This document shows positions 1-22,409 of a stretch of DNA of 22,409 bases, one piece after another (the stretch's first letter is position 1; the number at the start of each line of letters is the position of its first letter). The notes below the pieces were generated by a model. It was not told the origin of the DNA and did not search any database. It was given only the letters and a program-made list of their open reading frames with translations. This stretch comes from an uncultured Candidatus Rokubacteria bacterium (GTDB lineage Bacteria; Methylomirabilota; Methylomirabilia; Rokubacteriales; CSP1-6). The position numbers were made by a program, and so were the translations under genes. The stretch is from assembly GCA_963747235.1 (NCBI GenBank), contig CAVVEU010000042.1, forward strand, positions 1 to 22,409, written 5' to 3'.

Positions 1-72
1 CCAGGCCGCGCGGAAGCGCTGAGCCGCCCCGGCGACGTGGGATCTCACGCGAACAGGAGGAGGATGAAGACC

Positions 73-587
73 ATGAGCGCGCGCAAGGGGGAAGACTCAA
101 TGAATGTCGACAGGTCACGGCTCAGATTCATGGTGGAGGGCGGCGGCGTTCGCGGTCACCCTCGCGATGGGCCGCCGCGCCGGCGCGCAGGCCGGGCCAT
201 GCCGGGAAGATCACGGTCTACAAGGAGCCGACCTGAGGGTGCTGCAACGAGTGGGTGGGGCACCTACAGCGATCGGGGTTCGCCGTGGCGGTGGAGAACC
301 GGGCCGACCTCCGGCCGATCAAGAGCCGGTATCGCGTGCCGGCCGATCTCGAGGTCCTGTCATACGGCAGTGATCGAGGGGTACGCGATCGAGGGCCACG
401 TCCCCGCTGATGTGATCAGCCGGCTTCTCCGCGAGCGCCCGAAGGTCCTCGGCCTGGCCGTGCCGGGGATGCCGGCCGGCTCCCCAGGCATGGAGGTGCC
501 GGGCTCACCGGCCGGAGCCTGTACCGCGTCTTCATGTTCGATAGGGGGCGCACCGTGGGCGTCTTCGCGACCCGCTCGGGTGGTTGA
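73..587 (+). CDS. DUF411/CopG-like periplasmic metal-binding protein; frameshifted in this sequence; in-frame TGA at a conserved Cys (possible Sec)
   Basis: Stitching frames gives a signal-like N-terminus (AAAFAVTLAM), KITVYKEPT*GCCNEWVGHL (207-266), SCHTAVIEGYAIEGHVPA, GLAVPGMPAGSPGME and YRVFMFDRGRTVGVFA, ending at TGA 585-587. These are DUF411 hallmark motifs. At least 4 frame changes. Start is ATG 73 (GGAGG at 59-63) or ATG 100. Confidence 0.85.
240..271 (+). promoter_or_regulatory. Candidate bacterial SECIS hairpin
   Basis: Follows TGA 234-236. Upper stem GUGGGUG (251-257) / CACCUAC (261-267) with a GGG loop; lower stem UGCU (240-243) / AGCG (268-271). The apical loop is 21 nt from the UGA. 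Confidence 0.5.
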
Positions 588-736
588 TCGAGAGACGTGA
601 AGAAACGCGGAGGGGCACACGCCAAGTAGTATATTTGCGCCATTGTTCCCTGTCGGGGCCGTGGACTAACATCGGGAATCGCCGATGGTATTGACGGCCA
701 TTGTCCCAATCCCAATGGGAACCGAAAGGGTCGCCA

Positions 737-1930
737 ATGATGCGAAGTGTGAGGTGGATCGTCCTCACTGTCGCCGTACTCGTCGCACCGCTCGGCGCGG
801 TCTCGGCCCAGCCTGTGATGAGCCCGAGCCAGGACCCGCTCGCGGGGTCGCAGGTGTTCGGCTCAAAGGGTTGCGTCAAGTGCCACTCGGTGAACGGGGT
901 CGGCGGCAAGGTGGCGCCCGATCTCGCCCGCACGATGAGGCCGCGCTCGTTCGTCGATCTGGCGACCGCGATGTGGAACCACCTTCCGCGCATGACGGAC
1001 CGGATGAAGCAGCTCGGCATTGCCCGGCCGCAGCTCGACTCCAAGGAGGCCGGCGACCTGGTCGGCTTCCTCTACACGTTGAACTACTTCGACGCCCCGG
1101 GTAATGCCGACGCCGGGAAGCGCGTCTTCTCCGAGAAGCACTGCATCACCTGCCATACCGTGCGCGGCACGGGCGGGGTGGTGGGGCCGAACCTGGATCA
1201 CCTCCGGCAATTCGGCTCACCCATCTTCGTGGCGTCGGCGATGTGGAACCACGGGCCCCAGATGGCGGAGAAGATGAAGGAGCGGGGGATCGACCGCCCC
1301 ACCTTCACGGCGAAGGAGCTGCGCGATCTCAGCGCATATCTGGCCCCCGCCACCGGGGGGCCCGAGGAAGGGCCGCTCTACGTGCTGCCGGGGCGGCCCG
1401 AGTCCGGGCGGCAGCTCTTCGCGGAGAAGCGCTGCATCGAGTGCCACGCGGTGGGTGGTGCGGGTGGCCGCGTGGGACCGGATCTGGTCGAGCGCGGTCT
1501 ACGGGAGAGCCCGATGGAGTTCGCGGCGACGATCTGGAACAAGGCGCCCGCCATGGCCGCGGTCATGCAATCCAAGGGAATCAGCGTCCCCCAGCTGGCC
1601 CCCGAGCAGATGGCCGACATCGTCGCCTACCTGTATTCGGTCCGCTACTTCGCGAGCGGCAACGTGCAGCAGGGATACAGCGTGGCGAGCCAGAAGGGCT
1701 GCTTGAACTGCCACGTGCTTCGCGGCGAGCGCGGCAAGCCCGCCAGTGACTTGACGAAGGTGAAAGGGCTGGACTCACCGGCCGCGGCGCTGGCCGCCCT
1801 GTGGAACCACGCGCTGGTGACGCCCACCGTTGCCGGGAAGAAGCTGGACTGGCCGGTCTTCGCATCTCGAGAGATGGCCGACCTCCTCGCGATGCTCCAG
1901 TCCGTCAGCCAGTCGCAAAAAGCCCGCTGA
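737..1930 (+). CDS. Periplasmic tetraheme cytochrome c made of four tandem class I-like domains
   Basis: GAAAGGG RBS before ATG 737; signal peptide ending AVSA-Q; CVKCH, CITCH, CIECH, CLNCH; each domain repeats GxxxFxxKxCxxCH...GPDL...WN(H/K)xPxM. Confidence 0.92.
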   Translation: MMRSVRWIVLTVAVLVAPLGAVSAQPVMSPSQDPLAGSQVFGSKGCVKCHSVNGVGGKVAPDLARTMRPRSFVDLATAMWNHLPRMTDRMKQLGIARPQLDSKEAGDLVGFLYTLNYFDAPGNADAGKRVFSEKHCITCHTVRGTGGVVGPNLDHLRQFGSPIFVASAMWNHGPQMAEKMKERGIDRPTFTAKELRDLSAYLAPATGGPEEGPLYVLPGRPESGRQLFAEKRCIECHAVGGAGGRVGPDLVERGLRESPMEFAATIWNKAPAMAAVMQSKGISVPQLAPEQMADIVAYLYSVRYFASGNVQQGYSVASQKGCLNCHVLRGERGKPASDLTKVKGLDSPAAALAALWNHALVTPTVAGKKLDWPVFASREMADLLAMLQSVSQSQKAR

Positions 1931-1938
1931 TCCGTGAG

Positions 1939-3206
1939 ATGACCGGACTCGGTCTCGCGGGAGCGCTGCTCCTTGCGGTCGTGCTGTGGCCTTCCCAGGT
2001 GGGGGCCCAGGCGCGCGGACGCGTGCGCCGCCTGTCACCTCGAGACCGGGGACGAGCGGCTGGCCGCTCCCGCCAGGAATTTCGACGGGGACATCCACAA
2101 GGCGAAAGGCTTCGGCTGCGTGGACTGCCACGGCGGTGACAGCCGGGCGACCGGCATGGAGGCCATGGATCCCCGCAAGGGCTTCATCGGCAAGATCTCG
2201 CGCCCGCAGATGACCCAGGTCTGCGGCCGGTGCCACTCCGACGCCGGCTTCATGAAGCGCTACAATCCCTCGCTGCGCGTGGACCAGGTGGCCGAATACG
2301 CGACCTCGGTCCACGGCCGGCGGCTCAGAGAGCTGGGCGATCCGAAGGTGGCGACCTGCGCGAGCTGCCACCCGCCCCATGCGATTCGACCGCGGTCCGA
2401 TCCGAAGTCGAGCGTTCATCCGGTCCGCGTCGCCGACACCTGCGCCCGCTGCCACGCCGACGCGAAGTACATGGCGAGCTACAAGATCCCGACCGATCAG
2501 CTCGAGAAGTACAAGAGCAGCGTCCACTGGGCCGCGATGACGGCCAAGGGCGACCTCTCCGCGCCCACGTGCAACAGCTGCCACGGCAATCACGGCGCCG
2601 TGCCACCCGGGGTGAACTGGGTGGGCAACGTGTGCGGGCAATGCCACAGCCGTGCAGGCCGACCTGTTCAAGTCGAGCGTCCACGCCAAGGCGTTCACCG
2701 AGATGGGGACACCGGGCTGCGCGACGTGCCACGAGAACCACGCGATCCGCGCGCCCGGCGACTTCATGCTGGGGCTCGGAGACAAGGCGGTCTGCGGCAC
2801 CTGCCACGGTCCCGACGACAAGGGGGGCAAGAGTGCCGTCGAGATGCAGGCGCGGATCAGTTCGCTCCGGACCGAGCTGGAGAAGGCCGACGCCCTCCTG
2901 CTGCGGGCCGAGCGGGCGGGCATGGAGGTCAGCCAGGCCCAGTTCGATCTGAACGGAGCCCGGGACGACCTGATCAAGGCGCGCGCGGCCGTCCACGCCT
3001 TCAAGGTCGACGCGGTGAAGCAGGCGGTCGAGCCCGGGCTTGCGGTGAGCGCCAAGGCCCACGCCCGCGGGCTGCGCGCGCTGGAAGAGCTCGGGTTCCG
3101 GCGCAAGGGGCTCGCGGTGTCGCTGGTCGTGATCTTCGCCCTGATCGCGGGCCTGGTGGTGAAGATCCGGCAGCTCGATCGCCCCAGGGAGGCTTCCCAT
3201 GACTGA
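1939..3206 (+). CDS. Nonaheme cytochrome c with C-terminal membrane anchor (2 apparent frameshifts)
   Basis: Signal peptide MTGLGLAGALLLAVVLWPSQVGA; +1 shifts near 2015 and 2651; CAACH, CVDCH, CGRCH, CASCH, CARCH, CNSCH, CGQCH, CATCH, CGTCH; repeated (Y/F)xxSVH; helical stalk then TM GLAVSLVVIFALIAGLVV. Confidence 0.88.
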
Positions 3207-3655
3207 GCACGTGCTGGAGCCCGACGAGAGCCGCCGGGGATTCATCAACTGGTTCCTCGGGACCAGTGCGGTGGCGTTCGTCCTCTCCGTCTTCTATCCG
3301 GTGGCCAGCTACCTGGTGCCGCCCACGGTCGGGGAGTCCACCGCGGGCACCGTGACGCTGCCCATCAAGCCCGACGACGTGAAGCCCAATACGGGACAGA
3401 TCTTCAAGTTCGGAAGCCGCCCCGGCGATCCTGATCCGGACCTCGGCCGGTGATCTCCGGGCATTCTCCGCCGTCTGCACCCATCTCAACTGCACCGTGC
3501 AGTACCGGTCGGATCTCAGCGAGATCTGGTGCGCCTGCCACAACGGCCACTACGACCTGAACGGCAAGAATGTCGCGGGCCCGCCGCCCCGGCCGCTGGA
3601 CACGTTCGTGGTCAATGTCCGGGGGACCCAGATCGTGGTCAGCAAGAGCGCGTGA
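3199..3655 (+). CDS. qcrA: Rieske [2Fe-2S] subunit of a Rieske/cytochrome b complex (1 apparent frameshift)
   Basis: Tat motif SRRGFI plus TM helix; +1 shift near 3427, then CTHLNC and [10 protein letters not shown] boxes and GPPPRPL; stop TGA 3653-3655. Confidence 0.92.
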
Positions 3656-3657
3656 CG

Positions 3658-4755
3658 ATGGAGGCCGGCGAGCCGCGACACGGCAGGCTCTGGATGTGGC
3701 TCGACCAGCGGGTCGGGCTCAAGGACCTGGAGAAGCTCGCCCGGAAGAAGGAGATCCCGGTCCATCGGCACAGCATCTGGTACTACCTGGGCGGCATGAC
3801 CCTCTTCCTCTTCATCATCCAGGTGTCGACCGGCATCCTGCTGCTGCTCTACTACCGCCCGAGCGCGGAGGAGGCCTTCGAGTCGATCCAGTTCCTGATG
3901 GCCGAGGTCCAGTTCGGCTGGCTCATCCGCTCGATCCACTCCTGGGCGGCCAACCTCATGATCCTCACCCTCTTCGTGCATCTCTTCAGCGTGCTGCTGC
4001 TCAAGGCGTACCGGCCGCCGCGGGAGATCACGTGGTTCTCCGGCATGGCGCTGCTGGGCCTGGCCCTCGGCTTCGGGTTCACGGGCTACCTGCTGCCGTG
4101 GAACGAGCTCGCGTACTTCGCGACCAAGGTGGGCACCGAGATCACGAGCGCCGTTCCCGGGATCGGAGGGTTCGCGGGCCGGCTGCTCCGCGGCGGCGAC
4201 GAGGTGACCGGGGCGACGCTGACGCGCTTCTACGGGATCCACGTCGCGATCCTGCCCGCGACCGCGGTCGCCCTCCTGGGGCTGCACCTGTACCTGGTGC
4301 AGCGACACGGGATGAGCGTGCCGCCCGGCGTCGAGCGGAAGGGCGGGGCGGCGCGCGTGATGCCGTTCGTCCCGAACTTCCTGCTGCGCGACATCGTGGG
4401 CTGGCTCTCGGCGCTCGCGGTCCTGGCCGCGCTCGCCGCGTACTTCCCGGCGGAGCTCGGCCGGAAGGCGGATCCGTTCCTGCCCGCCCCGGCCGGGATC
4501 AAGCCCGAGTGGTACTTCATGTTCATGTTCCAGACGCTGAAGTACCTGCCGAGCCACATCCTCGGCATCGAGGGGGAGATCGTGGGCATTCTCGGCTTCG
4601 GACTGGGCGGCCTCTTCCTCCTGCTCATCCCCCTCCTCGACCGCCGGACCGCGCGGGGCCAGCCGAGCCGTCTGTTCACCTGGATCGGGATCGCGATCAT
4701 CCTGTACATGGTGCTGTTCACCGTTCTCGGCTACATGGCGAGCGCGACCAAGTGA
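3658..4755 (+). CDS. qcrB: Cytochrome b of a Rieske/cytochrome b complex (b6-like N-half fused to subunit IV-like C-half)
   Basis: [40 protein letters not shown]...LH, and the Qo motif PEWY; ATG 3658 lies directly after the Rieske stop. Confidence 0.95.
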
Positions 4756-5383
4756 TCCACCGGCGCCCGGGTCCGTTCCTGCTCGGGATCGGCGCTCGTC
4801 CTCGCCGGGATCGGCGCGGGGATCGGGACCGCGGCGGAGGCTCCCGGGGACGCGGAGCGCGGGCAGGCGGTCTTCGCGGCCAAGCAGTGCGTGCGCTGCC
4901 ATGCTTCCCGGGGCCAGCCGAGCGTGGGGCCGGCCATCGAGGAGCTGAGACGGCCGCAGGGCGCCTACGAGCTGGCGGGCCGCTTCTGGAACCACGCCCC
5001 CGCCATGTTCACGACCTTGATGCGGGAGGGGATCGCGTGGCCGGAGATCAGTCCCGCGGAGATGGCCGATCTGATGGCGTATCTCCAGGCGGATGCGTCG
5101 CGGGACCCGGCCCCCGACCTCTCCCAGGGGCACATCCTCCTCGTCAGGAAAGGATGTCTCAAGTGCCATCGCTATCGAGGTGAAGGCGGCAAGATCGCCG
5201 AGGAGCTGACGCAGTACCATCCCGGTTACCAGTCTGCCGTGACCGTGGGCGGGCGCGGTCTGGAAGCACGCCCCTCGCATGGCCGAGGAGGCCCGGCGGA
5301 TGGGGGTGTCATACCCTCGCTTCACGGGCGAGGAGATGGGGAACCTGGTCGGGCTCCTTCGGAGCACCGCCAAGGCGCCGTGA
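4752..5383 (+). CDS. Periplasmic diheme cytochrome c, same domain type as the tetraheme (2 apparent frameshifts)
   Basis: GTG overlaps the cytochrome b stop; +1 shifts near 4790 and 5245; CVRCH...FWNHAPAM and CLKCH...VWKHAPRM; ends RSTAKAP-TGA at 5381-5383. Confidence 0.85.
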
Positions 5384-5408
5384 CCAACGAAGCCAGGAGG
5401 AACCTACG

Positions 5409-5775
5409 ATGTCCTATCGACCATGGATGTTCGCGCTCGTGATCGCGGCCACGCTCGGCGTCGTGGCGGTCTCGTCAGGGACCGCGTCGGCGCAGGTCAA
5501 GCCGCCCGCCGACTTCAAGTTCGAGAGCCGGCAAGGACAGCCCCGGGCCGGTGACCTTCAGCCACGAGGAGCACAAGGAGAAGGTCGGCGGGTGCACGGC
5601 GTGCCACGTCAAGATCTTCAAGATGAAGAAGGGGGCGGACGCGCCGTTCACGATGGAGAGGATGAAGAACGGGCAGCTGTGCGGGACCTGCCACAACGGC
5701 ACGACCGAGGTCAAGGGGAAGGTGGTTTTCGCCGCGACCGACAAGGCCAACTGCGAGAAGTGTCACAGGAAGTGA
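5409..5775 (+). CDS. Small c7-type triheme periplasmic cytochrome (1 apparent frameshift)
   Basis: AGGAGG RBS; signal peptide ending ASA-Q; +1 shift near 5530; VTFSHEEH, CTACH, MERMKNGQLCGTCH, CEKCH match the c(7)-type triheme domain pattern. Confidence 0.87.
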
Positions 5776-6707
5776 CCGACCCCGAGGAGTCCCCGGCCAC
5801 GCGCCGGCGGGTCTACCGCTGGCGCGCGGTCTGGATCGTCCTCGCGATCGCGGCGGTCGTCGGCGGCGGCGTGCTGACGAGCCTCTGGCACGTCAGCGCG
5901 AGCCCGCAGTTCTGCAACTCGTGCCACATCATGCGCCCCTACGTCGAGGCCTGGAAGGTGTCCAAGCACAGCCAGGTCGCCTGCGTGCAGTGTCACTATC
6001 CCCCCGGTCTGCGCGACACGCTCTGGGTGAAGTTCCAGGCCATCAGCCAGGTCGCCAAGTGGGCGACGCAGACCTACAACTCGAAGCCGTTTGCGGTCGT
6101 GGAAGACGCCAGCTGCTTCCGCTCGGGCTGTCACTCCGGGGCCCAGCTCGAGAGCCGGGGCGTGCTCACCTTCGGGCGGGGCGTGCGCTTCGATCACCGC
6201 CCCCACCTCCAATCGGCGATGATGGGCCGGCAGTTGCGCTGCACGAGCTGTCATTCGCAGATCGTCGTGGGAAAGCACTTCGAGGTCACGACGTCCACCT
6301 GTTTCACCTGCCACTTCAAGGGGACGAAGGACGGCCGGGACCTCGCTCCGGTCGCGGGTTGCACCGGTTGCCACGAGCTCCCCAAGGGGGACATCGCCGT
6401 GAGCTCGATCCGGTTCAACCACGCCCAGATCGTGCAGCGGGGCGTGTCGTGCGAGAAGTGTCACCTCAACGTGGTCGAGGGAAGCGGGGAGGTGCCGCGG
6501 GAGCGTTGTTTCACCTGCCACAACCAGCAGGAGAAGCTCGACCGGTATACCGACCGGGCGCTGCTGCACTCGGTTCACGTCACCGAGCGCACCATCACCT
6601 GCACCCGGTGTCACACCGAGATCAAGCACCGGCTGCCACCGCCGGTCGGCGCGCCAACGGCGCAAGGCGAGCGCGGGGCGCTCCTGGCCACGCCGGGACG
6701 CCGATGA
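5772..6707 (+). CDS. Membrane-anchored multiheme cytochrome c with NapC/NirT/NrfH-like N-terminus (9 heme motifs)
   Basis: GTG overlaps the previous stop; N-terminal TM helix; FCNSCHIM (CxxCHxM), CVQCH, CFRSGCH (CX4CH), CTSCH, CFTCH, CTGCH, CEKCH, CFTCH, CTRCH. Confidence 0.9.
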   Translation: MTDPEESPATRRRVYRWRAVWIVLAIAAVVGGGVLTSLWHVSASPQFCNSCHIMRPYVEAWKVSKHSQVACVQCHYPPGLRDTLWVKFQAISQVAKWATQTYNSKPFAVVEDASCFRSGCHSGAQLESRGVLTFGRGVRFDHRPHLQSAMMGRQLRCTSCHSQIVVGKHFEVTTSTCFTCHFKGTKDGRDLAPVAGCTGCHELPKGDIAVSSIRFNHAQIVQRGVSCEKCHLNVVEGSGEVPRERCFTCHNQQEKLDRYTDRALLHSVHVTERTITCTRCHTEIKHRLPPPVGAPTAQGERGALLATPGRR

Positions 6708-8011
6708 TCCGGGCGGCGCTGCTTCTGGCACTACTGGGGCTCACCCTCGCGGGGCCGGGCCCCGCACGGGCGCAGGGGCCCGGCACGCCGCCCGCGCCTC
6801 CGGCATCGCAGCACACCGGCGAGCTCGATTGCCGTCAGTGCCACCAGGGCAACCACCAGGGCGTGGTCGGCATGTACCTCGGGATGGGTGGGCGGGGCAC
6901 CCCCATGATCCCCAGCCACATGTTCCAGGTGCGGGTGCAGTGCGTCGCCTGCCACATCGTGCCCAAGGAGGACCAGGGGTCGGCGGCGCTCGTCGGGCGG
7001 ACCTTCAGGCCCACCGAGCAGGCCTGCGTGAATTGCCACGGCGAGAAGTATCGCGGCATGCTCCAGCGGTGGGTGGACACCCTCGCCAAGATGCGCGAGA
7101 TCCTCTCCCCGAAGCTGTCCGCGGCGCGGGCCGCCCTGACCGGGGCGGGCGGCCCGACCCCGAAGCAGGCGCGCGCCCAGCGGCTGACGAACGACGCCGA
7201 GTACAACATGCAGTTCGTCGCGCTCGGCAAGGGAGTCCACAACGTCTTCTACGCGGCGGACCTGCTCAAGCTCTCCAACGGCTGGCTCGATGAGGCGCTG
7301 CCGCTCCTGGGGAAGCCACCCCTCAAGAGCGACGACGCCCTGGTCCGGGGTGGCTACTGTGCCGTGCTCTGCCACTCGACCGCCGGGGTGAGGCAGTCGG
7401 AGATCGTGACCTACGGCAAGCAGCGGATCCCTCACATCCGGCACGTCACCGAGTTCGGCGCCGTGTGCACCGCCTGCCACTCGGCCGAGGTGCACAAGGC
7501 GGTCACCGCGAAGCCGGCCACGTGCTCCGGCTGTCACCACAGCGCCCAGAACGAGCGCTGCGAGTCGTGCCACCGCGCCCAGAGCGCGTTCTACCGGGGG
7601 CAGGTGAGCTCGCTGGGAGTCAAGGTCGAGGCCAACGCCATGGCCGAGGCCGTGGGCTGCACCGGGTGCCACGACTGGTCGCAGAAGCACTCGCGTCAGG
7701 CGGTGGGGCAGAAGTGCGTCGGCTGCCACGACGCCGCGTACACCAGCTTCGTGGGCGAGTGGACGACCGGGCTCGACAAGAAGGCGGCGGGGGCCCGGGA
7801 GGCGCTCCGGACCGCGGAGACCGCGCTGGCCCGCGAGCGGCGGGCCGGGCGCCGGGTCCCCGACGCCGAGGCGCTCGTGCGGCAGGCCCGGGAGGCTCTA
7901 GCCCTGGTGCAGAAGGCGCGCGGCGCCCACAATCCGGCCGGCGCCGAGTCGATCCTCGAGGGGGTCCGGGCGAAAGCCGACGCGGCCGCCGCCCAGGCCC
8001 GCCAGAAGTAG
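6704..8011 (+). CDS. Periplasmic multiheme cytochrome c (9 heme motifs)
   Basis: ATGA overlap; signal peptide ending ARA-Q; CRQCH, CVACH, CVNCH, CAVLCH (CX3CH), CTACH, CSGCH, CESCH, CTGCH, CVGCH; two helical segments ending GVHN and GAHN. Confidence 0.9.
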   Translation: MIRAALLLALLGLTLAGPGPARAQGPGTPPAPPASQHTGELDCRQCHQGNHQGVVGMYLGMGGRGTPMIPSHMFQVRVQCVACHIVPKEDQGSAALVGRTFRPTEQACVNCHGEKYRGMLQRWVDTLAKMREILSPKLSAARAALTGAGGPTPKQARAQRLTNDAEYNMQFVALGKGVHNVFYAADLLKLSNGWLDEALPLLGKPPLKSDDALVRGGYCAVLCHSTAGVRQSEIVTYGKQRIPHIRHVTEFGAVCTACHSAEVHKAVTAKPATCSGCHHSAQNERCESCHRAQSAFYRGQVSSLGVKVEANAMAEAVGCTGCHDWSQKHSRQAVGQKCVGCHDAAYTSFVGEWTTGLDKKAAGAREALRTAETALARERRAGRRVPDAEALVRQAREALALVQKARGAHNPAGAESILEGVRAKADAAAAQARQK

Positions 8012-8042
8012 CTCGGCCCGGGCAGGAGGGCCCCGGTCGAGC
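8011..8042 (+). other. Intergenic hairpin (possible attenuator or mRNA processing/stability element)
   Basis: GCTCGGCC-C-GGGC / GCCC-C-GGTCGAGC stem with an AGGAGG loop immediately after the stop; no U-tract. Confidence 0.4.
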
Positions 8043-8172
8043 AGTATGGTCCAAACGGACTATTGCCACCGTGGGGCGGATCGGCTTAGACTCCGGCGCG
8101 ATTCGGGTTGTTTCGCCCTGCGTTGTCGCGACGGGCGCCGATTGCTTTCGCCGGACCGATAGGAGCGATGCT

Positions 8173-9144
8173 ATGACCCGGAGGCTGTGGCGGCTGCTCG
8201 GAGTGATCGGTGGTGGCGCCGTCGTCCTGTCCGTCGGCTTCGTCCTGGGCCTTCCCTTCTCTTCCCGGGCCCAGCAACCCGCTCAGCCCGCCACAACGGC
8301 GGCGATGCCGCCCGGCGACAACTACGTTGGCGCGGAGACCTGCAAGGGCTGCCACGAGGAAGCGTTCAACAAGTTCTCCCATACCAGGATGGGGCGTCTC
8401 TTCCTCAGGCAGCCGCGCAGTGCGAAGGAAGCCAATGCCTGCGAGAGCTGCCACGGGCCCGGCAAGGACCACGTGGATGCGGGCGGCGGCAAGGGCAAGG
8501 GGGGCATGATCACCTTCGCGAAGAACGACCCCACGCCGGTGGAGAAGCGGAACGCGGTGTGCCTGTCGTGCCACACCAAGGGCGCCCGCCTCTTCTGGCA
8601 GGGGAGCGCGCACGAGTCGCGGGATGTGGCCTGCACGAGCTGCCACAAGGTCATGGACAATGTCTCCCCGCGCCACCAGCTCGCCAAGGAGACCGTGATC
8701 GAGACCTGCGGCAGCTGCCACATCCAGAAGCGGGCCCAGACGATGCGAACCTCGCACATGCCGCTCCGCGAGGGCAAGATGACCTGCACCTCGTGCCACA
8801 ACCCGCACGGGACGGTGACGCCGGCGCTCCTCAAGGAGCCGTCGCTCAACGATACCTGCTTCACGTGCCACGCCGAGAAGCGTGGCCCCTTCCTGTGGAA
8901 TCACCCGCCGCAGATCGAGAGCTGCGCCAACTGCCACGATCCCCACGGCTCCAATCACGAGAACATGCTGAAGACGGCCAAGCCGCGGCTCTGCCAGCAG
9001 TGTCACGTCCCGACGTCGCACCCGACGAGGCCCTACGGCCGGGACACGTCATCGCTGAAGTTCGTGCTGGGGCAATCGTGCCTGACCTGTCACGTCAACA
9101 TCCACGGCTCGAATCACCCGGCCGGCTTCGCCTTCACACGGTAA
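8173..9144 (+). CDS. mtrA: MtrA/DmsE/PioA/MtoA-family decaheme cytochrome c
   Basis: AGGAG RBS at 8161; signal peptide; exactly 10 CxxCH; family motifs CESCHGPG, CHAEKRGPFLWNHPP, CHDPHGS and C-terminal IHGSNHPAG. Confidence 0.95.
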   Translation: MTRRLWRLLGVIGGGAVVLSVGFVLGLPFSSRAQQPAQPATTAAMPPGDNYVGAETCKGCHEEAFNKFSHTRMGRLFLRQPRSAKEANACESCHGPGKDHVDAGGGKGKGGMITFAKNDPTPVEKRNAVCLSCHTKGARLFWQGSAHESRDVACTSCHKVMDNVSPRHQLAKETVIETCGSCHIQKRAQTMRTSHMPLREGKMTCTSCHNPHGTVTPALLKEPSLNDTCFTCHAEKRGPFLWNHPPQIESCANCHDPHGSNHENMLKTAKPRLCQQCHVPTSHPTRPYGRDTSSLKFVLGQSCLTCHVNIHGSNHPAGFAFTR

Positions 9145-9154
9145 GGGGGCCGCC

Positions 9155-11434
9155 ATGCGAACGACGCGAACGGTACGATCCGTTCTCGCGGGGCTGCTGG
9201 TGCTCGCGGCCGCGGGAGCCGCCGCTGCCCAGACGGCCGCTCCCACCGAGACGGCCCCTCCCATCGAGATCGGCGGCTTCAGGCTCGAGGGATACGGGGA
9301 GGCCGGAGTTCGCTTCTTCCGCGAGCGCCCGACGCAGAAAGAGAGCGCCAAGTTCGAGGAGTACCGAGACATCAACCAGGGGCTCTACCTCCAGGGCCTG
9401 TGGCTGCGATTCTTCACGCCCGATGAGAAGTACTCGGGCGTGATCGGCGGCCGGCAGTGGGGGCTGCAGGACCAGGAGTACCACCTGAGCTTCGAGCGGC
9501 TGGGTCGGTGGGAGGCCGGCTTCGAGTGGGACCAGATGCGGCACATCTTCTCGACCAATGCCCGGACGCTCATGAACGAGACCAGTCGCGGGGTCTTCGC
9601 GCTGCCGAACCCGCGCCCCCCGCTCATCAATTACAACAACGGGCGGAGCATCGACGAGATCAGCGTGCGCTGGGATACGGCGCGCACGTTCCTCAAGCTC
9701 AGCTTGTCCGAGAACGCGGACCTGTTCGCCGAGTACACGCGCATCCACAAGGACGGCGAGCGGCCCTTCGGCATGGCGTTCGGCAGCCCCGGCGGCAGTG
9801 CCTTCGAGGTCCTGCAGCCCATCGAGCACACCATCCACGATTTCCGGCTGCGCGGGACCTGGGCCACCGAGCGATGGCAGCTCCAGGCCGGCTACACGAT
9901 GTCGATCTTCGTGAACGACCTCGCCTACGTACGGGCCGACAACCCCTGCAATCCCGCACCGGCCCCCGCTGCCCCGTGCCCGGCGGTGGGAAACACAGGG
10001 CAGTTCGGCACCGTCTCGCTGCCGCCGAACAACATGGCCCACACCTTCAGCCTGCAGGGCGGGGTGAACCTGCCCATGCGCACCCGCATCAGCAGCAACT
10101 TCACGTATAGCCTGAGGCTCCAGAACGACGACTTCCTGCCCCAGACGAGCACCAACAGCCTGGTCCTGTCGAACCCCAGTCTGGCTCTGCCCCAGAAGAG
10201 CCTGCACGGCAACGTCCAGACCATCCTGTTCAACCTAAACGCGACGAGCCGGCCGCTGCCGATTCCCGTCACCTTCGGGGCCAAGTACCGCCTGTACGAC
10301 CTCATCGACAACAGCGATGTCGTGAGGTTCTCCGACTTCAACATCAACGATCAGAACACCATCGCGCGCGGGCCCCATTTCTCCCAGCGGTTCAGCTACA
10401 TGCGCCAGAACGCGGACCTGGATGCCCGCTGGCAGATCGCGCGGCCCGTGGCCCTCACGCTGGGCACGGGATGGGAGCGGTGGGACCGGCCCGAGACTCG
10501 CGAGGTGCGGGTCAGCGACGAGTTCTTCGCCAAGGCCGCCCTGGACGTGACGCCCGCCGACTGGCTGATGATCCGGGCCACGTATCAGCCTTCCATCCGT
10601 CGGATCGACGAGTACAAGACGTTTGCCCTGGCCGCGGTGGAGCAGAACGCGGCCCCCGGGGAGCCGGGCCAGTCATACCTCCTGCGCAAGTACGACGAGA
10701 GCGACCGGGACCGGCAGCGCGTGGACCTCATGATGCAGATCACGCCGACCGAGACGTTGACAATCACGCCGTCGGCCAGCTACCGGTTCGACAACTACAT
10801 CGCGACGGGCCTGAAGCACGACGCCAACGGCCTTGGCCAGAATGGAGCCATGCTCGGCCTCCAGCAGGCGGTCAGCTGGTCGGCCGGGATGGACGTGAAC
10901 TGGACCCCGGTGGAGCGACTCTCCTTCGCCGCCGGGTACATGCACGAGTCCAACTTCCAGAAGCAGCGCTCTCGCAACCGGAACCCCGACGATCCGGCCC
11001 TCGACTGGATCTCGGACAATACCGACACCGTCGACACCTACCACGCCTCCGTGACGGCTCGGCTGATCCCGGGCAAGCTCGATCTCAAGTTCGCCGGCAA
11101 CTATTCCTATGCCCTGGGCCGCGTCGAGACCTGGAACCCCAACGCCAACGGCAGCACCGTCTACAACGCGGTCGCGAACACCAACCAAGTTGCCAGGCCC
11201 TGGCCGGCCTTCGAGGACAGCCTCCTGCGGCTCGAGGCCTCCCTCAGGTACCACTTCGGGCAGGTCTGGACCGCGAGCCTGAATTACGCCTACGAGTCGT
11301 TCCGCAAGCACGACTGGCGGACGGACACCATCAATCCGTTCGTCCCGGGCAACTCCGCCGTCTACCTCGGCAACGACCTGAAGAACTACGAGGCCCACAT
11401 CTTCGGCGTGACGCTCGGCTACCACTTCAAGTAG
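9155..11434 (+). CDS. mtrB: MtrB/PioB-family outer-membrane beta-barrel
   Basis: 759 aa; signal peptide; KFEEYRD near the N-terminus, LPPNNMAH, alternating beta-strand pattern, C-terminal LGYHFK; directly follows the decaheme gene. Confidence 0.93.
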   Translation: MRTTRTVRSVLAGLLVLAAAGAAAAQTAAPTETAPPIEIGGFRLEGYGEAGVRFFRERPTQKESAKFEEYRDINQGLYLQGLWLRFFTPDEKYSGVIGGRQWGLQDQEYHLSFERLGRWEAGFEWDQMRHIFSTNARTLMNETSRGVFALPNPRPPLINYNNGRSIDEISVRWDTARTFLKLSLSENADLFAEYTRIHKDGERPFGMAFGSPGGSAFEVLQPIEHTIHDFRLRGTWATERWQLQAGYTMSIFVNDLAYVRADNPCNPAPAPAAPCPAVGNTGQFGTVSLPPNNMAHTFSLQGGVNLPMRTRISSNFTYSLRLQNDDFLPQTSTNSLVLSNPSLALPQKSLHGNVQTILFNLNATSRPLPIPVTFGAKYRLYDLIDNSDVVRFSDFNINDQNTIARGPHFSQRFSYMRQNADLDARWQIARPVALTLGTGWERWDRPETREVRVSDEFFAKAALDVTPADWLMIRATYQPSIRRIDEYKTFALAAVEQNAAPGEPGQSYLLRKYDESDRDRQRVDLMMQITPTETLTITPSASYRFDNYIATGLKHDANGLGQNGAMLGLQQAVSWSAGMDVNWTPVERLSFAAGYMHESNFQKQRSRNRNPDDPALDWISDNTDTVDTYHASVTARLIPGKLDLKFAGNYSYALGRVETWNPNANGSTVYNAVANTNQVARPWPAFEDSLLRLEASLRYHFGQVWTASLNYAYESFRKHDWRTDTINPFVPGNSAVYLGNDLKNYEAHIFGVTLGYHFK

Positions 11435-13655: not shown

Positions 13656-13912
13656 GTACAGCGTGCCGCTCGACGAGCCCTATCGGTTGACCAAGCCCCG
13701 ATGTGTTCGTCGCGACCAGTAAACTCCGCGCGCCCTCCGCGAGCAATGAGCCTGCTGCATCAATTCCTTGGTCATGTCGGCTCATGCTCCTGACTCGCCC
13801 CCTGAGGCGGCGCCTCCCCATCTGGGGCCCCATCGCACCACGCCCCTGGTGCTCGCGGTCACGGCCCGATGGAAACCGGATGCGAATCAGCTGGTTGGAC
13901 AGCACGCTCGGT

Positions 13913-13928
13913 CGGTACCTTGCTTGCA
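13913..13928 (+). promoter_or_regulatory. Sigma-54 (-24/-12) promoter
   Basis: CGGTACCTTGCTTGCA has GG-N10-GC with TTGCA, upstream of ATG 13971. Confidence 0.55.
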
Positions 13929-13970
13929 CATTCTCCAGGCCGACCGGGTCAAACACAGGGAGACCATGGA

Positions 13971-14633
13971 ATGCCAGCAAGGAGCCGCAGGAAGGTGTCC
14001 GAGACGACGGAGCTGGCGGAGATGCTCGCCGCGACCGCCGACGGCGGCTTCGCCATCGACGCGGAGGGCCGGATCGTCCTGTGGAACCGCGCGGCGGAGC
14101 GCATGCTCGGCTACACCGTGCGCGAGACGGTTGGCCGGCGGTGCTGCGATCTGCTCATGGGTGATGACGAGAATGGCAACCGCCTCTGCTGCCGGGGCTG
14201 TCATATCGTGGACCTCGTCAAGATGCGCACCCCGGTGCACAGCTTCGACATGCGCACTCGCACGAAGACCGGGTCTGCCATCTGGGTGAACGTCAGCACG
14301 CTCCGGGTCTCGAGGGACGGAGCCGGCGACAGGACGGTTCATCTGCTTCGCGACGTGACCGCGACCCGGGAGATCCTGGCGCTCATCCGGGAGCGCCTGG
14401 CAGTCCCCGCCGCGCCCGTGCCCGCGGCTCCGGACGGCACCGGCGCGCTCACTCGCCGCGAGTTCGAGATCCTGCGCGTCATCGCGACCGGCGTCAACAC
14501 CAAGGACGCCGCCGAGCGCCTCCACGTGAGCCCGGCCACCATCCGCAACCACGTCCAAAACATCCTGGGCAAGCTCGGCGCTCACAGCCGGCTCGAGGCG
14601 GTGGCCTACGCGACCCGCAACCGCCTGATCTGA
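13971..14633 (+). CDS. PAS domain plus LuxR-type HTH transcriptional regulator
   Basis: GGGAG RBS; PAS pattern IDAEGRIVLWNRAAERMLGY; LuxR HTH LTRREFEIL...AERLHVSPATIRNHVQNILGKLGAHSRLEAV. Confidence 0.92.
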   Translation: MPARSRRKVSETTELAEMLAATADGGFAIDAEGRIVLWNRAAERMLGYTVRETVGRRCCDLLMGDDENGNRLCCRGCHIVDLVKMRTPVHSFDMRTRTKTGSAIWVNVSTLRVSRDGAGDRTVHLLRDVTATREILALIRERLAVPAAPVPAAPDGTGALTRREFEILRVIATGVNTKDAAERLHVSPATIRNHVQNILGKLGAHSRLEAVAYATRNRLI

Positions 14634-14891
14634 GCCCTCGCGGCGTTGTCACCCTCCGGAGCCGAGCGACCGCCTCCCCGTTCCGCCTCGCCGGTCCAGC
14701 GGTCGCCCTCATGTGGGTCGCGCTCGGCCAGCAGCGGCCACTTGTCAATAGCCACGACTTGGCCGGCTGCGACCATCGTGAGGCGGCCGCCGACGCCCGA
14801 GTACCCCAGTGGGGCGGAGCGTCCCCACCACCGTCCCTGCCCGGCAGCGCGAAAGTCTCCGGGAACATTGGATAACCGGCGGTCGGGCGCC

Positions 14892-14907
14892 CGGCACGCA
14901 GTTTGCC
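14892..14907 (+). promoter_or_regulatory. Sigma-54 (-24/-12) promoter of the CBS-gltA-radical SAM-nifJ operon
   Basis: CGGCACGCAGTTTGCC is a near-consensus GGCACG-N4-TTGC about 60 nt before ATG 14969. Confidence 0.65.
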
Positions 14908-14968
14908 CCGTGCCTTCTTAGTAAGTTGGTGCTCGGCGGAGTGGGACGAGATCGACGGAGGAAGGCCA

Positions 14969-21412
<6,444 letters not shown>

Positions 21413-21416
<4 letters not shown>

Positions 21417-22409
21417 TCGACCTCGTCGACGCGTACCTGGGGCTGTCCCTGCCGAACCCGCTGGTGGCCTCGGCGGGGCCCCTGTGCGAGAGCCTCGACA
21501 ACATCCGCCGATGGAGGACGCGGGGGCGGCGGCGGTGGTGCTGCACTCGCTCTTCGAGGAGCAGATCACGGTGGAGAGCTCCCACCTCGACCGCGTATCT
21601 CTCCCACGGCGCGGAGAGCTACGCGGAGGCGCGTGACCTACTTCCCGGACATGCAGAGCTACAAGATCGGCCCGGACGCGTATCTCGAGCACATCCGCCG
21701 GGCCAAGGCCGCCGTCCGGATCCCGATCATCGGCAGCCTCAACGGGATCTCCACCGGCGGCTGGACCGGCTACGCGCGCAAGATCGAGGAAGCCGGCGCC
21801 GATGCGCTCGAGCTGAACGTCTACTACATCCCCACCGACCCGGACATGACCGCCGAGGAGGTGGAGCGGCGGTACGTGGACCTGGTGCGGGATGTCAAGG
21901 CGAGCGTCCGCATCCCGGTCGCGGTCAAGCTCGGCCACAGCTTCAGCGCCCCCGCCAACCTCGCGCGCCGCCTCGACCGGGCGGGCGCCGACGCGCTGGT
22001 GCTCTTCAACCGCTTCTACCTGCCGGACTTCGATCTGGACAACCTCGAGGTCGTGCCGCACCTCACGCTGTCGAGCTCGTACGAGCTGCTGGTGCGGCTG
22101 CACTGGGTCGCCATCCTCTACGGTCACGTCCGGGCCGATCTCGCGGTCACCGGGGGCGTGCACACCGCCGCGGGACGTCCTGAAGGCCATGATGGCGGGC
22201 GCGCGGGTCGCGATGATGACCTCGGCGCTGCTCCAGCACGGCATCGAGCACCTCACGGCCGTGCGGGAAGGGCTCCTCGCCTGGATGGAAGCCCATGAGT
22301 ACGAGTCCATCCGGCAGATGCAGGGCAGCATGAGCTACCGGTCGGTTCGCGAGCCGGCCGCGTTCGAGCGGGCCAACTACATGAAGGTGCTGAGCTCCTA
22401 TGCGCTCCG
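21413..22409 (+). CDS. Dihydroorotate dehydrogenase-like flavoprotein (4 apparent frameshifts; runs off the window end)
   Basis: [72 protein letters not shown]; ATGA overlap with nifJ. Confidence 0.88.

Follow-up and report, generated by a model that had tools for sequence, protein, structure and literature searches.

Passages of a review (PMC7558416) present CopG as a periplasmic, thioredoxin-like protein with a part in anaerobic copper resistance, whose Cu4 cluster is bound by a CxCC motif and two methionine residues, and which has been proposed both as a Cu(I) oxidase and as a copper donor to a multicopper oxidase. A gene of this type (family DUF411, PF04214) lies at the start of a 22,409-nucleotide stretch of DNA, here called the window, which is the whole of contig C42 (CAVVEU010000042.1) in a genome of 5.57 Mb and 42 contigs from an uncultured Candidatus Rokubacteria bacterium (GCA_963747235.1). 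In this gene a TGA codon stands in the position of the first cysteine of the CxCC motif, and the best explanation of the evidence as a whole, with a probability of roughly 0.85, is that the TGA found in this family is the selenocysteine (Sec) codon of an exported CopG-type copper protein. This reading is based on homology to CopG, conservation of either TGA or Cys at the site, the presence of Sec machinery, enrichment of a hairpin in the TGA-containing forms and the predicted fold. It can be stated with still greater confidence that the TGA-containing DUF411 proteins are a real and widespread selenoprotein family.

Frame 3 of the window reads ...AGKITVYKEPT-TGA-GCCNEWVGHLQRSGFAVAVENRADLRPIKSRYRVPADLE, after which SCHTAVIEGYAIEGHVPADVISRLLRERPKVLGLAVPGMPAGSPGMEVPGSPAG follows in frame 1 and the C-terminal tail LYRVFMFDRGRTVGVFATRSGG, up to the stop codon, is found in frame 3 again; the N-terminal signal region is divided between frames 1 and 2. 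The frame-1 piece matches PF04214, a model spanning a 48-residue core only, with an E value of 7.2e-27 and 93.3 bits against a cut-off of 27. The window copy has no single uninterrupted reading frame, as it contains five one-base insertions relative to an intact copy on contig C39 (C39:67265-67780; L048:3266-3781), where 172 codons, counted from an upstream ATG, form one open frame interrupted solely by the in-frame TGA. The likely start of the window gene (Table 1) matches the start of two homologues (L019 and L050), and its N-terminal region is predicted to be an export signal, which would place the protein in the periplasm. The initial annotation, made from the sequence of the window only, had claimed that TGA replaces the first Cys of CGCC and that homology continues on both sides of it. 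Both claims hold, as the first Cys of the CGCC in PDB entry 6wis aligns with the TGA at 234-236, and the intact copy matches 6wis over residues 49-168 (E 1.6e-29, 43-44% identity), with its U-G-C-C opposite CGCC. As the window copy is an untranslatable, error-laden near-duplicate, the case rests on the gene family and not on this copy. A second Sec-DUF411 paralogue of the type HKSPT-U-GCCAAWVGHLRASGY, also intact, is located at C8:425200-425660 (L049:3202-3654), flanked by genes for an alpha/beta hydrolase and a family III CoA-transferase, an arrangement also present in four related genomes.

A query of 54 residues spanning the TGA site was searched in the host genome and 60 relatives, and 33 of these 61 genomes gave a match. 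Exactly one TGA is present in 27 of the 38 matches (25 genomes), and none in the other 11. The site was placed by a motif search in 29 of 30 loci, 19 of which contain xPT-TGA-GG-TGY-TGY and 10 of which contain TGC at the same column, so that the relatives with TGA at this column, for which the initial annotation had proposed a search, do exist. This motif search missed one match holding a single TGA (L025, genome G049); one TGA row (L021) comes from genome G029, which is flagged as unpublished, and no conclusion depends on L021 alone. The frames of the TGA forms in the relatives are open through to the usual end of the protein, and Cys occupies the TGA column in all non-TGA homologues seen.

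The same arrangement occurs far beyond this order. A scan of one genome per prokaryotic species with the pattern TGA GGN TGY TGY N6 TGG, followed after 120-150 nt by GAR GGN CAY GTN CC, found at least 120 further loci (species genomes) with in-frame TGA-GGN-TGY-TGY in at least 10 phyla, where rough arithmetic gives a chance expectation of only a handful of matches. Among the matches listed, all 80 spans have a gap of 135, 141 or 144 nt and are thus in frame; each of the 120 fragments can be translated through the site without a change of frame, and one of them (L138) loses the family sequence soon afterwards. After de-duplication, the Sec rows among the matches listed comprise 25 from Chloroflexota, 23 from Acidobacteriota, 19 from Gemmatimonadota, 14 from Actinomycetota and 9 from Betaproteobacteria, with further Sec forms in Binatia, Rokubacteria/Methylomirabilota, Myxococcota, Tectimicrobiota and Thermodesulfobacteriota. 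For the comparison of Sec with Cys forms, fragments near the end of a locus, rows with a stop within 100 codons after the site and rows with at least 90% identity in an 84-nt region were dropped, which reduced the Sec set from 142 to 120 and the Cys set from 125 to 123, the latter consisting of 10 sequences from the relatives and, for the rest, of matches in metagenomes to the same pattern written with TGC. Once the Sec/Cys column is masked, a FastTree phylogeny of the 120 Sec and 123 Cys forms requires at least 18 changes of state, against a mean of 81 and a minimum of 68 for 200 shuffles of the labels. The Sec forms thus appear to cluster, yet not as one clean clade, a result that is merely indicative as the alignment is short (about 110 columns).

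The genome encodes a single tRNA-Sec (anticodon tca; C14:45384-45481), identified by ARAGORN, together with selA (C14:42603-43955, 578 bits against a cut-off of 268), selB (C14:40679-42565, 365 bits against 242) and selD (228 bits against 125, split over frames). All four genes that the initial annotation had proposed to look for (selA, selB, selC and selD) are therefore present, and selB, selA and the tRNA-Sec gene (selC) lie in a row on the minus strand of C14 (40679-45481). The copies of selD (C27:46033-46945 and C8:303114-303868) are each found in two to three pieces in different frames, which may be due either to frameshift error or, at the N-terminus, to the Sec codon of selD itself. Within the order, selB scores above the cut-off in 51 of the 61 genomes and in 19 of the 25 genomes with a TGA form; as it is nearly universal there, its co-occurrence with the TGA form is uninformative at this level. 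Five TGA-form genomes from Vicinamibacterales, Gemmatimonadota, Ardenticatenaceae, Microthrixaceae and a betaproteobacterium were also searched, and selA was found in all five and selB in four.

The protein belongs to the CopG fold as far as homology and modelling can tell. The PDB entries 6wis and 6wje are deposited as 'DUF411 domain-containing protein' and 'Copper resistance protein copG'. An AlphaFold2 model, made with a 40-row alignment, has a predicted local distance difference test score (pLDDT) of at least 95 over residues 48-170 and low confidence over residues 1-47. It contains a strand (residues 48-53, KITVYK), a loop (EPT-U) and a helix (residues 58-69), and as U57 is placed between strand and helix, Sec would cap the helix as the N-terminal residue of a thioredoxin-type xxC motif (U-G-C-C = UxxC). 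The best Foldseek matches are CopG 6wje and 6wis, with a target-normalised template modelling score of 0.91-0.93 and a root-mean-square deviation of 1.4-1.6 Å, followed by thioredoxins and glutaredoxins with weak scores. Residues invariant in the 40 rows are P55, U/C57, G58, C59, C60, W63, C98, H99, Y106, E109, G110, H111, V112, P113, G129, M135, P140, G141 and M142, so that the conserved methionines (M135 and M142) are present and, provided that UGA is decoded as Sec or Cys, so is the CxCC motif; together they are the copper-cluster ligands of CopG. The UGCC metal or redox site put forward in the initial annotation is consistent with the predicted structure, where Sec would start helix 1 after strand 1 of the CopG-type thioredoxin-like fold.

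A stem-loop of the SECIS (selenocysteine insertion sequence) type with an apical G shortly after the UGA is supported as a feature of the Sec forms as a family, and its significance lies only in the family-wide comparison of Sec with Cys forms. Starting at the second Cys codon, a stretch of 33 nt folds with -10.6 kcal/mol in the 120 Sec forms and -7.3 kcal/mol in the 123 Cys forms, and relative to 100 synonymous recodings with matched GC content at third codon positions (GC3) the z-scores are -1.08 and -0.14, respectively (Mann-Whitney p 7e-10). An unbroken stem of at least 6 bp is found in 85% of Sec and 35% of Cys forms, one of at least 7 bp in 68% and 15%, and one of at least 8 bp in 41% and 2%. 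Column pair 27-43 is paired in 76% of Sec and 36% of Cys forms, and is seen both as G-C (70) and as C-G (12); the corresponding values are 84% and 56% for pair 28-42, and 86% and 56% for pair 30-40. Of the 102 Sec forms that have an unbroken stem of this kind, 85 begin their loop 18-22 nt downstream of the UGA; the published bacterial SECIS model allows 16-37 nt. The loops are G-rich, with G within the first two bases in 83 of 89. The third base of the Leu codon is a purine in 101 of the 120 Sec forms against 69 of the 123 Cys forms, 41 of the latter having C. The separation is weak when the full 60 nt after the codon are folded (z -0.52 for Sec, -0.21 for Cys, p 0.03), the 33-nt window being the informative one.

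The hairpin of the window itself (Table 1) folds with -9 kcal/mol, its loop starting 22 nt after A236, and the C39 copy folds alike. Its 3' arm does use a rare Leu codon, as the initial annotation had pointed out, since CTA accounts for 0.82% of Leu codons (191 of 23,235) in 566 long high-GC3 frames of this genome. Two other candidates were rejected: a longer stem (GGGUGCU/GGCACCU) starting 1 nt after the UGA, which belongs to the minimum free energy structure of the window, is not kept in the relatives, where the third base of the Gly codon varies; and a stem formed by CCCACC, just before the UGA, with GGUGGG does not discriminate by eye, as CCC/CCG-ACC is found in Sec and Cys forms alike. 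In betaproteobacterial loci (L059, L061, L063, L071, L072 and others), the codons for GAWM(D/E)HLRA form a perfect helix of 11-12 bp (GGCGCGUGGAUG / CAUCUGCGCGCC), which is far longer than that in the lineage of the window.

From these observations we infer a course of events that includes Sec insertion, export, copper binding and a chemical role for selenium. The gene product would be an exported CopG-type (DUF411) thioredoxin-like copper protein with Sec as the first residue of CxCC, its in-frame UGA being recoded by the SelB/tRNA-Sec system with the help of a short G-loop hairpin, which would start about 15 nt after the UGA and be built from the codons of x-W-V-G-H-L-R/Q. The resulting U-G-C-C would stand where helix 1 begins, which is the position of the nucleophile in a thioredoxin CxxC motif. 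The selenolate could be one of the ligands that hold the copper cluster, or else the attacking residue when Cu(I)/Cu(II) undergoes redox handling outside the cytoplasm. Selenium is a softer and more nucleophilic ligand or redox centre with a lower pKa, properties that may apply here. The working gene would be the intact C39 copy, with a second locus on C8. A bolder version is only tentative and, taken as a whole, somewhat doubtful: Sec-CopG would be an uncatalogued, widespread selenoprotein family of at least 10 bacterial phyla of soils, sediments and groundwater, whose selenolate is a direct ligand of the tetranuclear copper cluster, giving a natural copper-selenium centre for periplasmic Cu(I)/Cu(II) handling, and would mark a coupling of selenium and copper homeostasis in these lineages rich in selenoproteins.

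How the window copy itself is to be read depends on its relation to C39. C42:1-8689 aligns to the last 8.7 kb of C39 (67203-75878) with 96.2% identity, 284 mismatches and 47 gap columns, the final ~700 bases of the overlap being identical. In the adjacent cytochrome c gene, C42 and C39 differ by 22 synonymous and 18 nonsynonymous codon differences (14/5/23 by codon position); as the substitutions look biological, C42 is genuinely diverged and not merely a noisy copy, and probably stands for another strain, or a further copy, whose consensus is poor. For window positions 1-8689 the probable alternatives are a second strain or haplotype and an overlap left unmerged, and the genes there are better read from C39. 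At each of the five insertion sites (Table 1), one base is missing from contigs of three public DNA metagenome runs (three studies) mapped to window:1-1500; these contigs are 88-99% alike to the window and come from related organisms, not from the source sample, and no public run contained more than 29% of the sampled words of window:1-1500. The five extra bases in the window copy are quite likely consensus errors.

The rival explanation that survives best, albeit an unlikely one, is that the window copy is a true decaying pseudogene in a duplicated 8.7-kb segment, the family elsewhere still being a genuine selenoprotein. It draws on the five insertions within 490 bp and on the biological look of the substitutions, by which C42 would be truly diverged. 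However, indels occur throughout the overlap, with 47 gap columns in 8.7 kb, and no gene there is spared, the last ~700 overlap bases are identical as at an assembly-graph junction, and independent assemblies lack each extra base. Genes beyond the overlap are also split over frames, namely the pyruvate:ferredoxin oxidoreductase (PFOR) gene at 16608-22183 and the selD copies, which makes the assembly look indel-prone. The PFOR pieces lie in several frames (POR_N, POR, EKR and 4Fe-4S), with a radical SAM domain sharing the open frame of POR_N. The caution of the initial annotation that the gene is error-rich and that the errors are indels was well placed, as all detectable breaks are one-base insertions. 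Whichever account of the insertions holds, the TGA is common to C42 and C39.

It is very improbable that the UGA is read as another residue, either as Cys through the Sec pathway under selenium scarcity or as Trp or Gly by near-cognate or recoded decoding. Misinsertion of Cys at Sec codons is known in other systems, and Sec is here the predicted residue. Against this, the column is Cys in all non-TGA homologues seen, the TGA forms occur together with Sec machinery, a SelB-type hairpin stands at the right distance and TGA is the main stop in these organisms. That TGA has been reassigned in general is excluded, as it is the commonest stop (329 of the 566 long high-GC3 frames of this genome) and also ends this gene.

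Slightly less probable again is that the UGA is a true stop, separating a short leader peptide from an N-terminally truncated DUF411 protein without CxCC. This is how the gene is represented in public collections: the proteins at least 77% identical to the intact copy (about 34 among the matches listed) are all 97-107 aa long and cover 56-62% of it; near relatives are truncated calls named 'hypothetical protein', the full-length entries among the matches listed being Cys forms; and three truncated proteins start after the motif, with VVVENRADL... or MVHLQKAGF.... But these calls are automatic and unable to read UGA. The segment GCCxxWVxHLxxxGF, which separates the TGA from the starts so called, keeps its protein sequence in different phyla while its GGN and TGY codons vary synonymously. 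The skipped stretch contains invariant family residues and forms helix 1, the truncated product would lose strand 1, helix 1 and the metal motif, and the hairpin is enriched in TGA forms only. Finally, an error for TGC or TGT at base 236 has, in spite of the error-rich region, a negligible probability, as the detectable errors are indels and the same TGA occurs in 24 other related genomes and at least 120 genomes elsewhere, and its presence in the intact C39 copy and in the second locus on C8 excludes a TGC>TGA miscall in practice.

Several observations weigh against the Sec reading, in which UGA readthrough and selenium insertion are predicted. Among the TGA-form genomes, four (G005, G017, G018 and G029; 78-95% complete) gave no match to selB and two more gave fragments only. 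The window hairpin alone is not distinguishable from shuffles (z -0.94, with 32 of 200 shuffles folding as well), a 67-nt fold of the window has a z-score of -0.61 against shuffles, and a scan of window 150-400 against Rfam gave two chance-level matches and no SECIS family; of the SECIS-like hairpin claimed in the initial annotation, its existence and its value as a family feature stand. RNAalifold finds the same helix in the 19 Sec forms of the relatives, with compensatory change in none of six pairs, and conservation among close relatives is confounded as the arms encode the conserved W-V-G-H-L; in some clades the register of the hairpin is shifted. The Sec and Cys sets compared for the hairpin are drawn from genomes and metagenomes, respectively, are not phylogenetically matched and include kin that are not independent. 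As the public-run contigs belong to related organisms, they are no proof that the C42 insertions are errors. Nor do the differences listed in that comparison, taken alone, establish an unaltered position 236. No copper gene was found within ~1.5 kb at 12 of 16 relatives' loci and at four of four loci from other phyla.

Table 1. Features of the DUF411/CopG gene in the window, with the bases that are extra relative to the intact copy on C39.
Feature	Position	Strand	Remarks
Extra base vs intact copy	55		Upstream of gene
DUF411/CopG gene	100..587 (approx.)	+	From translations; likely start ATG 100 (MNVDRSRLRF...), stop TGA 585-587; frames 1>2>3>1>3 as written
N-terminal export signal region (predicted)	100..206	+	Arg-rich n-region, hydrophobic core, ...AQA before mature KITVYK; from intact copy and homologues
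Extra base vs intact copy	142	+	Frame 1>2; public contigs omit one base at 141
Extra base vs intact copy	202	+	Frame 2>3; public contigs omit one base at 200 or 202
In-frame TGA, read as selenocysteine codon	234..236	+	Aligns with first Cys of CGCC (Cys homologues, PDB 6wis); conserved in relatives
U-G-C-C: copper/redox motif CxCC of CopG, Sec in first place (equals UxxC)	234..245	+	
SECIS-like hairpin	251..267	+	Stem 251-257 (GUGGGUG) with 261-267 (CACCUAC), loop GGG 258-260; alternatively 6-bp stem, 5-nt loop
CTA Leu codon	264..266	+	3' arm of hairpin; A pairs with U252
DUF411 core of Pfam model (SCHTA...EGHVPA...GLAVPGMPAGSPGME)	352..492	+	Frame 1, residues 118-164 of frame-1 translation
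Extra base vs intact copy	353	+	Frame 3>1; public contigs omit one base at 353, 354 or 356
Two extra bases vs intact copy	515 and 521	+	Frame 1>3; public contigs omit one at 514/515 and one at 520/521

The neighbourhood of the gene, as judged by sequence, supports a copper role only in part; on C39 and C42 its neighbours are respiratory genes. Upstream on C39 are a fragment of haem-copper oxidase subunit I (COX1), a CBS protein, a NapC/NirT-type (NrfH-like) cytochrome and a cytochrome c552 (NrfA-like). Downstream, the window encodes a four-domain cytochrome c (701-1930), multihaem cytochromes (1973-3202 and 5409-9144), a cytochrome b (3529-4755) and an MtrB/PioB outer-membrane barrel (porin; 9155-11434, E 5e-100), and the region 701-11434 is a putative porin-cytochrome electron conduit, including a NapC/NirT-type cytochrome. 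A PAS-LuxR (GerE) regulator is encoded at 13869-14633, between the cytochrome cluster and citrate synthase (14809-16734). Copper or metal genes stand beside four of the 16 relatives' loci scanned: a CusB-type fusion protein and a MerR regulator at L019, a multicopper oxidase and an RND (resistance-nodulation-division) pump at L021 (G029), an RND pump and a TlpA-like redoxin at L050, and SCO1/SenC and a redoxin at L025. The paralogue of the C8 type adjoins a family III CoA-transferase in four loci of related genomes. In a soil metatranscriptome (RNA run X15), contigs align to conserved parts of the gene within 201-450, the TGA stretch included, and then diverge; they are homologues from other organisms and say nothing firm on expression of the window gene.

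No entry for DUF411, PF04214 or CopG is found among the 119 prokaryotic selenoprotein families and subfamilies in Table 1 of a review of May 2026 (PMC13188914), which describes its own inventory as the most comprehensive. The BSepDB paper and one supplement (4.0 million characters) contain none of the terms DUF411, CopG, PF04214 and copper, and the BSepDB web database may still list the family; passages of the deep-Sep and GOS papers contain no such term either. No model of NCBIfam release 20 matches either intact copy. The initial annotation had asked whether a Sec-containing DUF411 protein is already catalogued, and none is present in the 119-family list, NCBIfam or the BSepDB supplement. 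A full-text search of the literature found nothing pairing DUF411 with selenocysteine, and searches for CopG with selenoprotein or selenocysteine, and for COG3019, gave unrelated matches only, as judged by title and start of abstract. Deng et al. 2026, cited in a passage of the review (PMC13188914) for 63 predicted selenoprotein genes in a Methylomirabilota metagenome-assembled genome, may still list the family. On balance, it is rather likely that the Sec-CopG family has not yet been described.

If the Sec reading is true, the prokaryotic selenoproteome would gain a new family, which automatic annotation systematically loses by leaving stumps of 97-107 aa without the metal motif, and selenium would be placed in the active site of CopG, a copper-cluster protein for which roles as Cu(I) oxidase or copper donor have been proposed. 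The natural Sec/Cys pairs of CopG would provide a ready-made experiment on the role of the first Cys of CxCC. As Sec-CopG is common in Rokubacteria/Methylomirabilota, Acidobacteriota, Gemmatimonadota, Chloroflexota and Acidimicrobiia, it would also bear on the trace-element ecology of soils and sediments. The genes can be found with a simple DNA pattern, and a family model would let annotation pipelines call them.

Compared with the SECIS of Escherichia coli fdhF, the proposed element is likewise an in-frame stem-loop a short fixed distance after the UGA with a G in its apical loop, but it shares no sequence similarity and has a stem of 6-9 bp in the relatives and up to 12 bp in betaproteobacteria, a loop of 3-5 nt and no evident bulged U, and binding of SelB to it is putative. 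With CopG of Pseudomonas aeruginosa (DUF411, PF04214; 6wis and 6wje) the protein shares homology over the whole domain, the fold and the invariant residues xGCC, W, CH(T), EGHVP and GMPxGSPGM. It differs in that the first Cys of CxCC is encoded by UGA, read as Sec, with a hairpin following in the coding sequence, and in that the loci examined are mostly outside a cop/cus operon; copper binding by the Sec form is predicted.

Metal-linked selenoproteins are already known (PMC13188914), such as the SO_0444 family Cu/Zn efflux transporter (UxC), cation-transporting ATPase (UxxC), CopZ-family 2Fe-2S, YHS-domain and mercuric transport proteins, which also have Sec in or beside a Cys motif for soft metals, but they belong to unrelated folds and families and none of them is a soluble periplasmic Cu-cluster protein. 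Sec-CopG probably represents a new family among selenoproteins of a familiar kind, those with Sec in place of the attacking Cys in a thioredoxin-fold motif. With the UxxC selenoproteins of thioredoxin fold (thioredoxin, glutaredoxin, DsbA-like, TlpA-like and SaoT; Table 1 of PMC13188914) it shares Sec as the N-terminal residue of xxC at the start of helix 1, plentiful Cys homologues, an in-frame SECIS hairpin just after the UGA and occurrence in Sec-rich lineages, whereas its own distinguishing features are the DUF411 family, a UxCC motif with a third thiol and, as its presumed partner, a metal cluster instead of a disulfide substrate.

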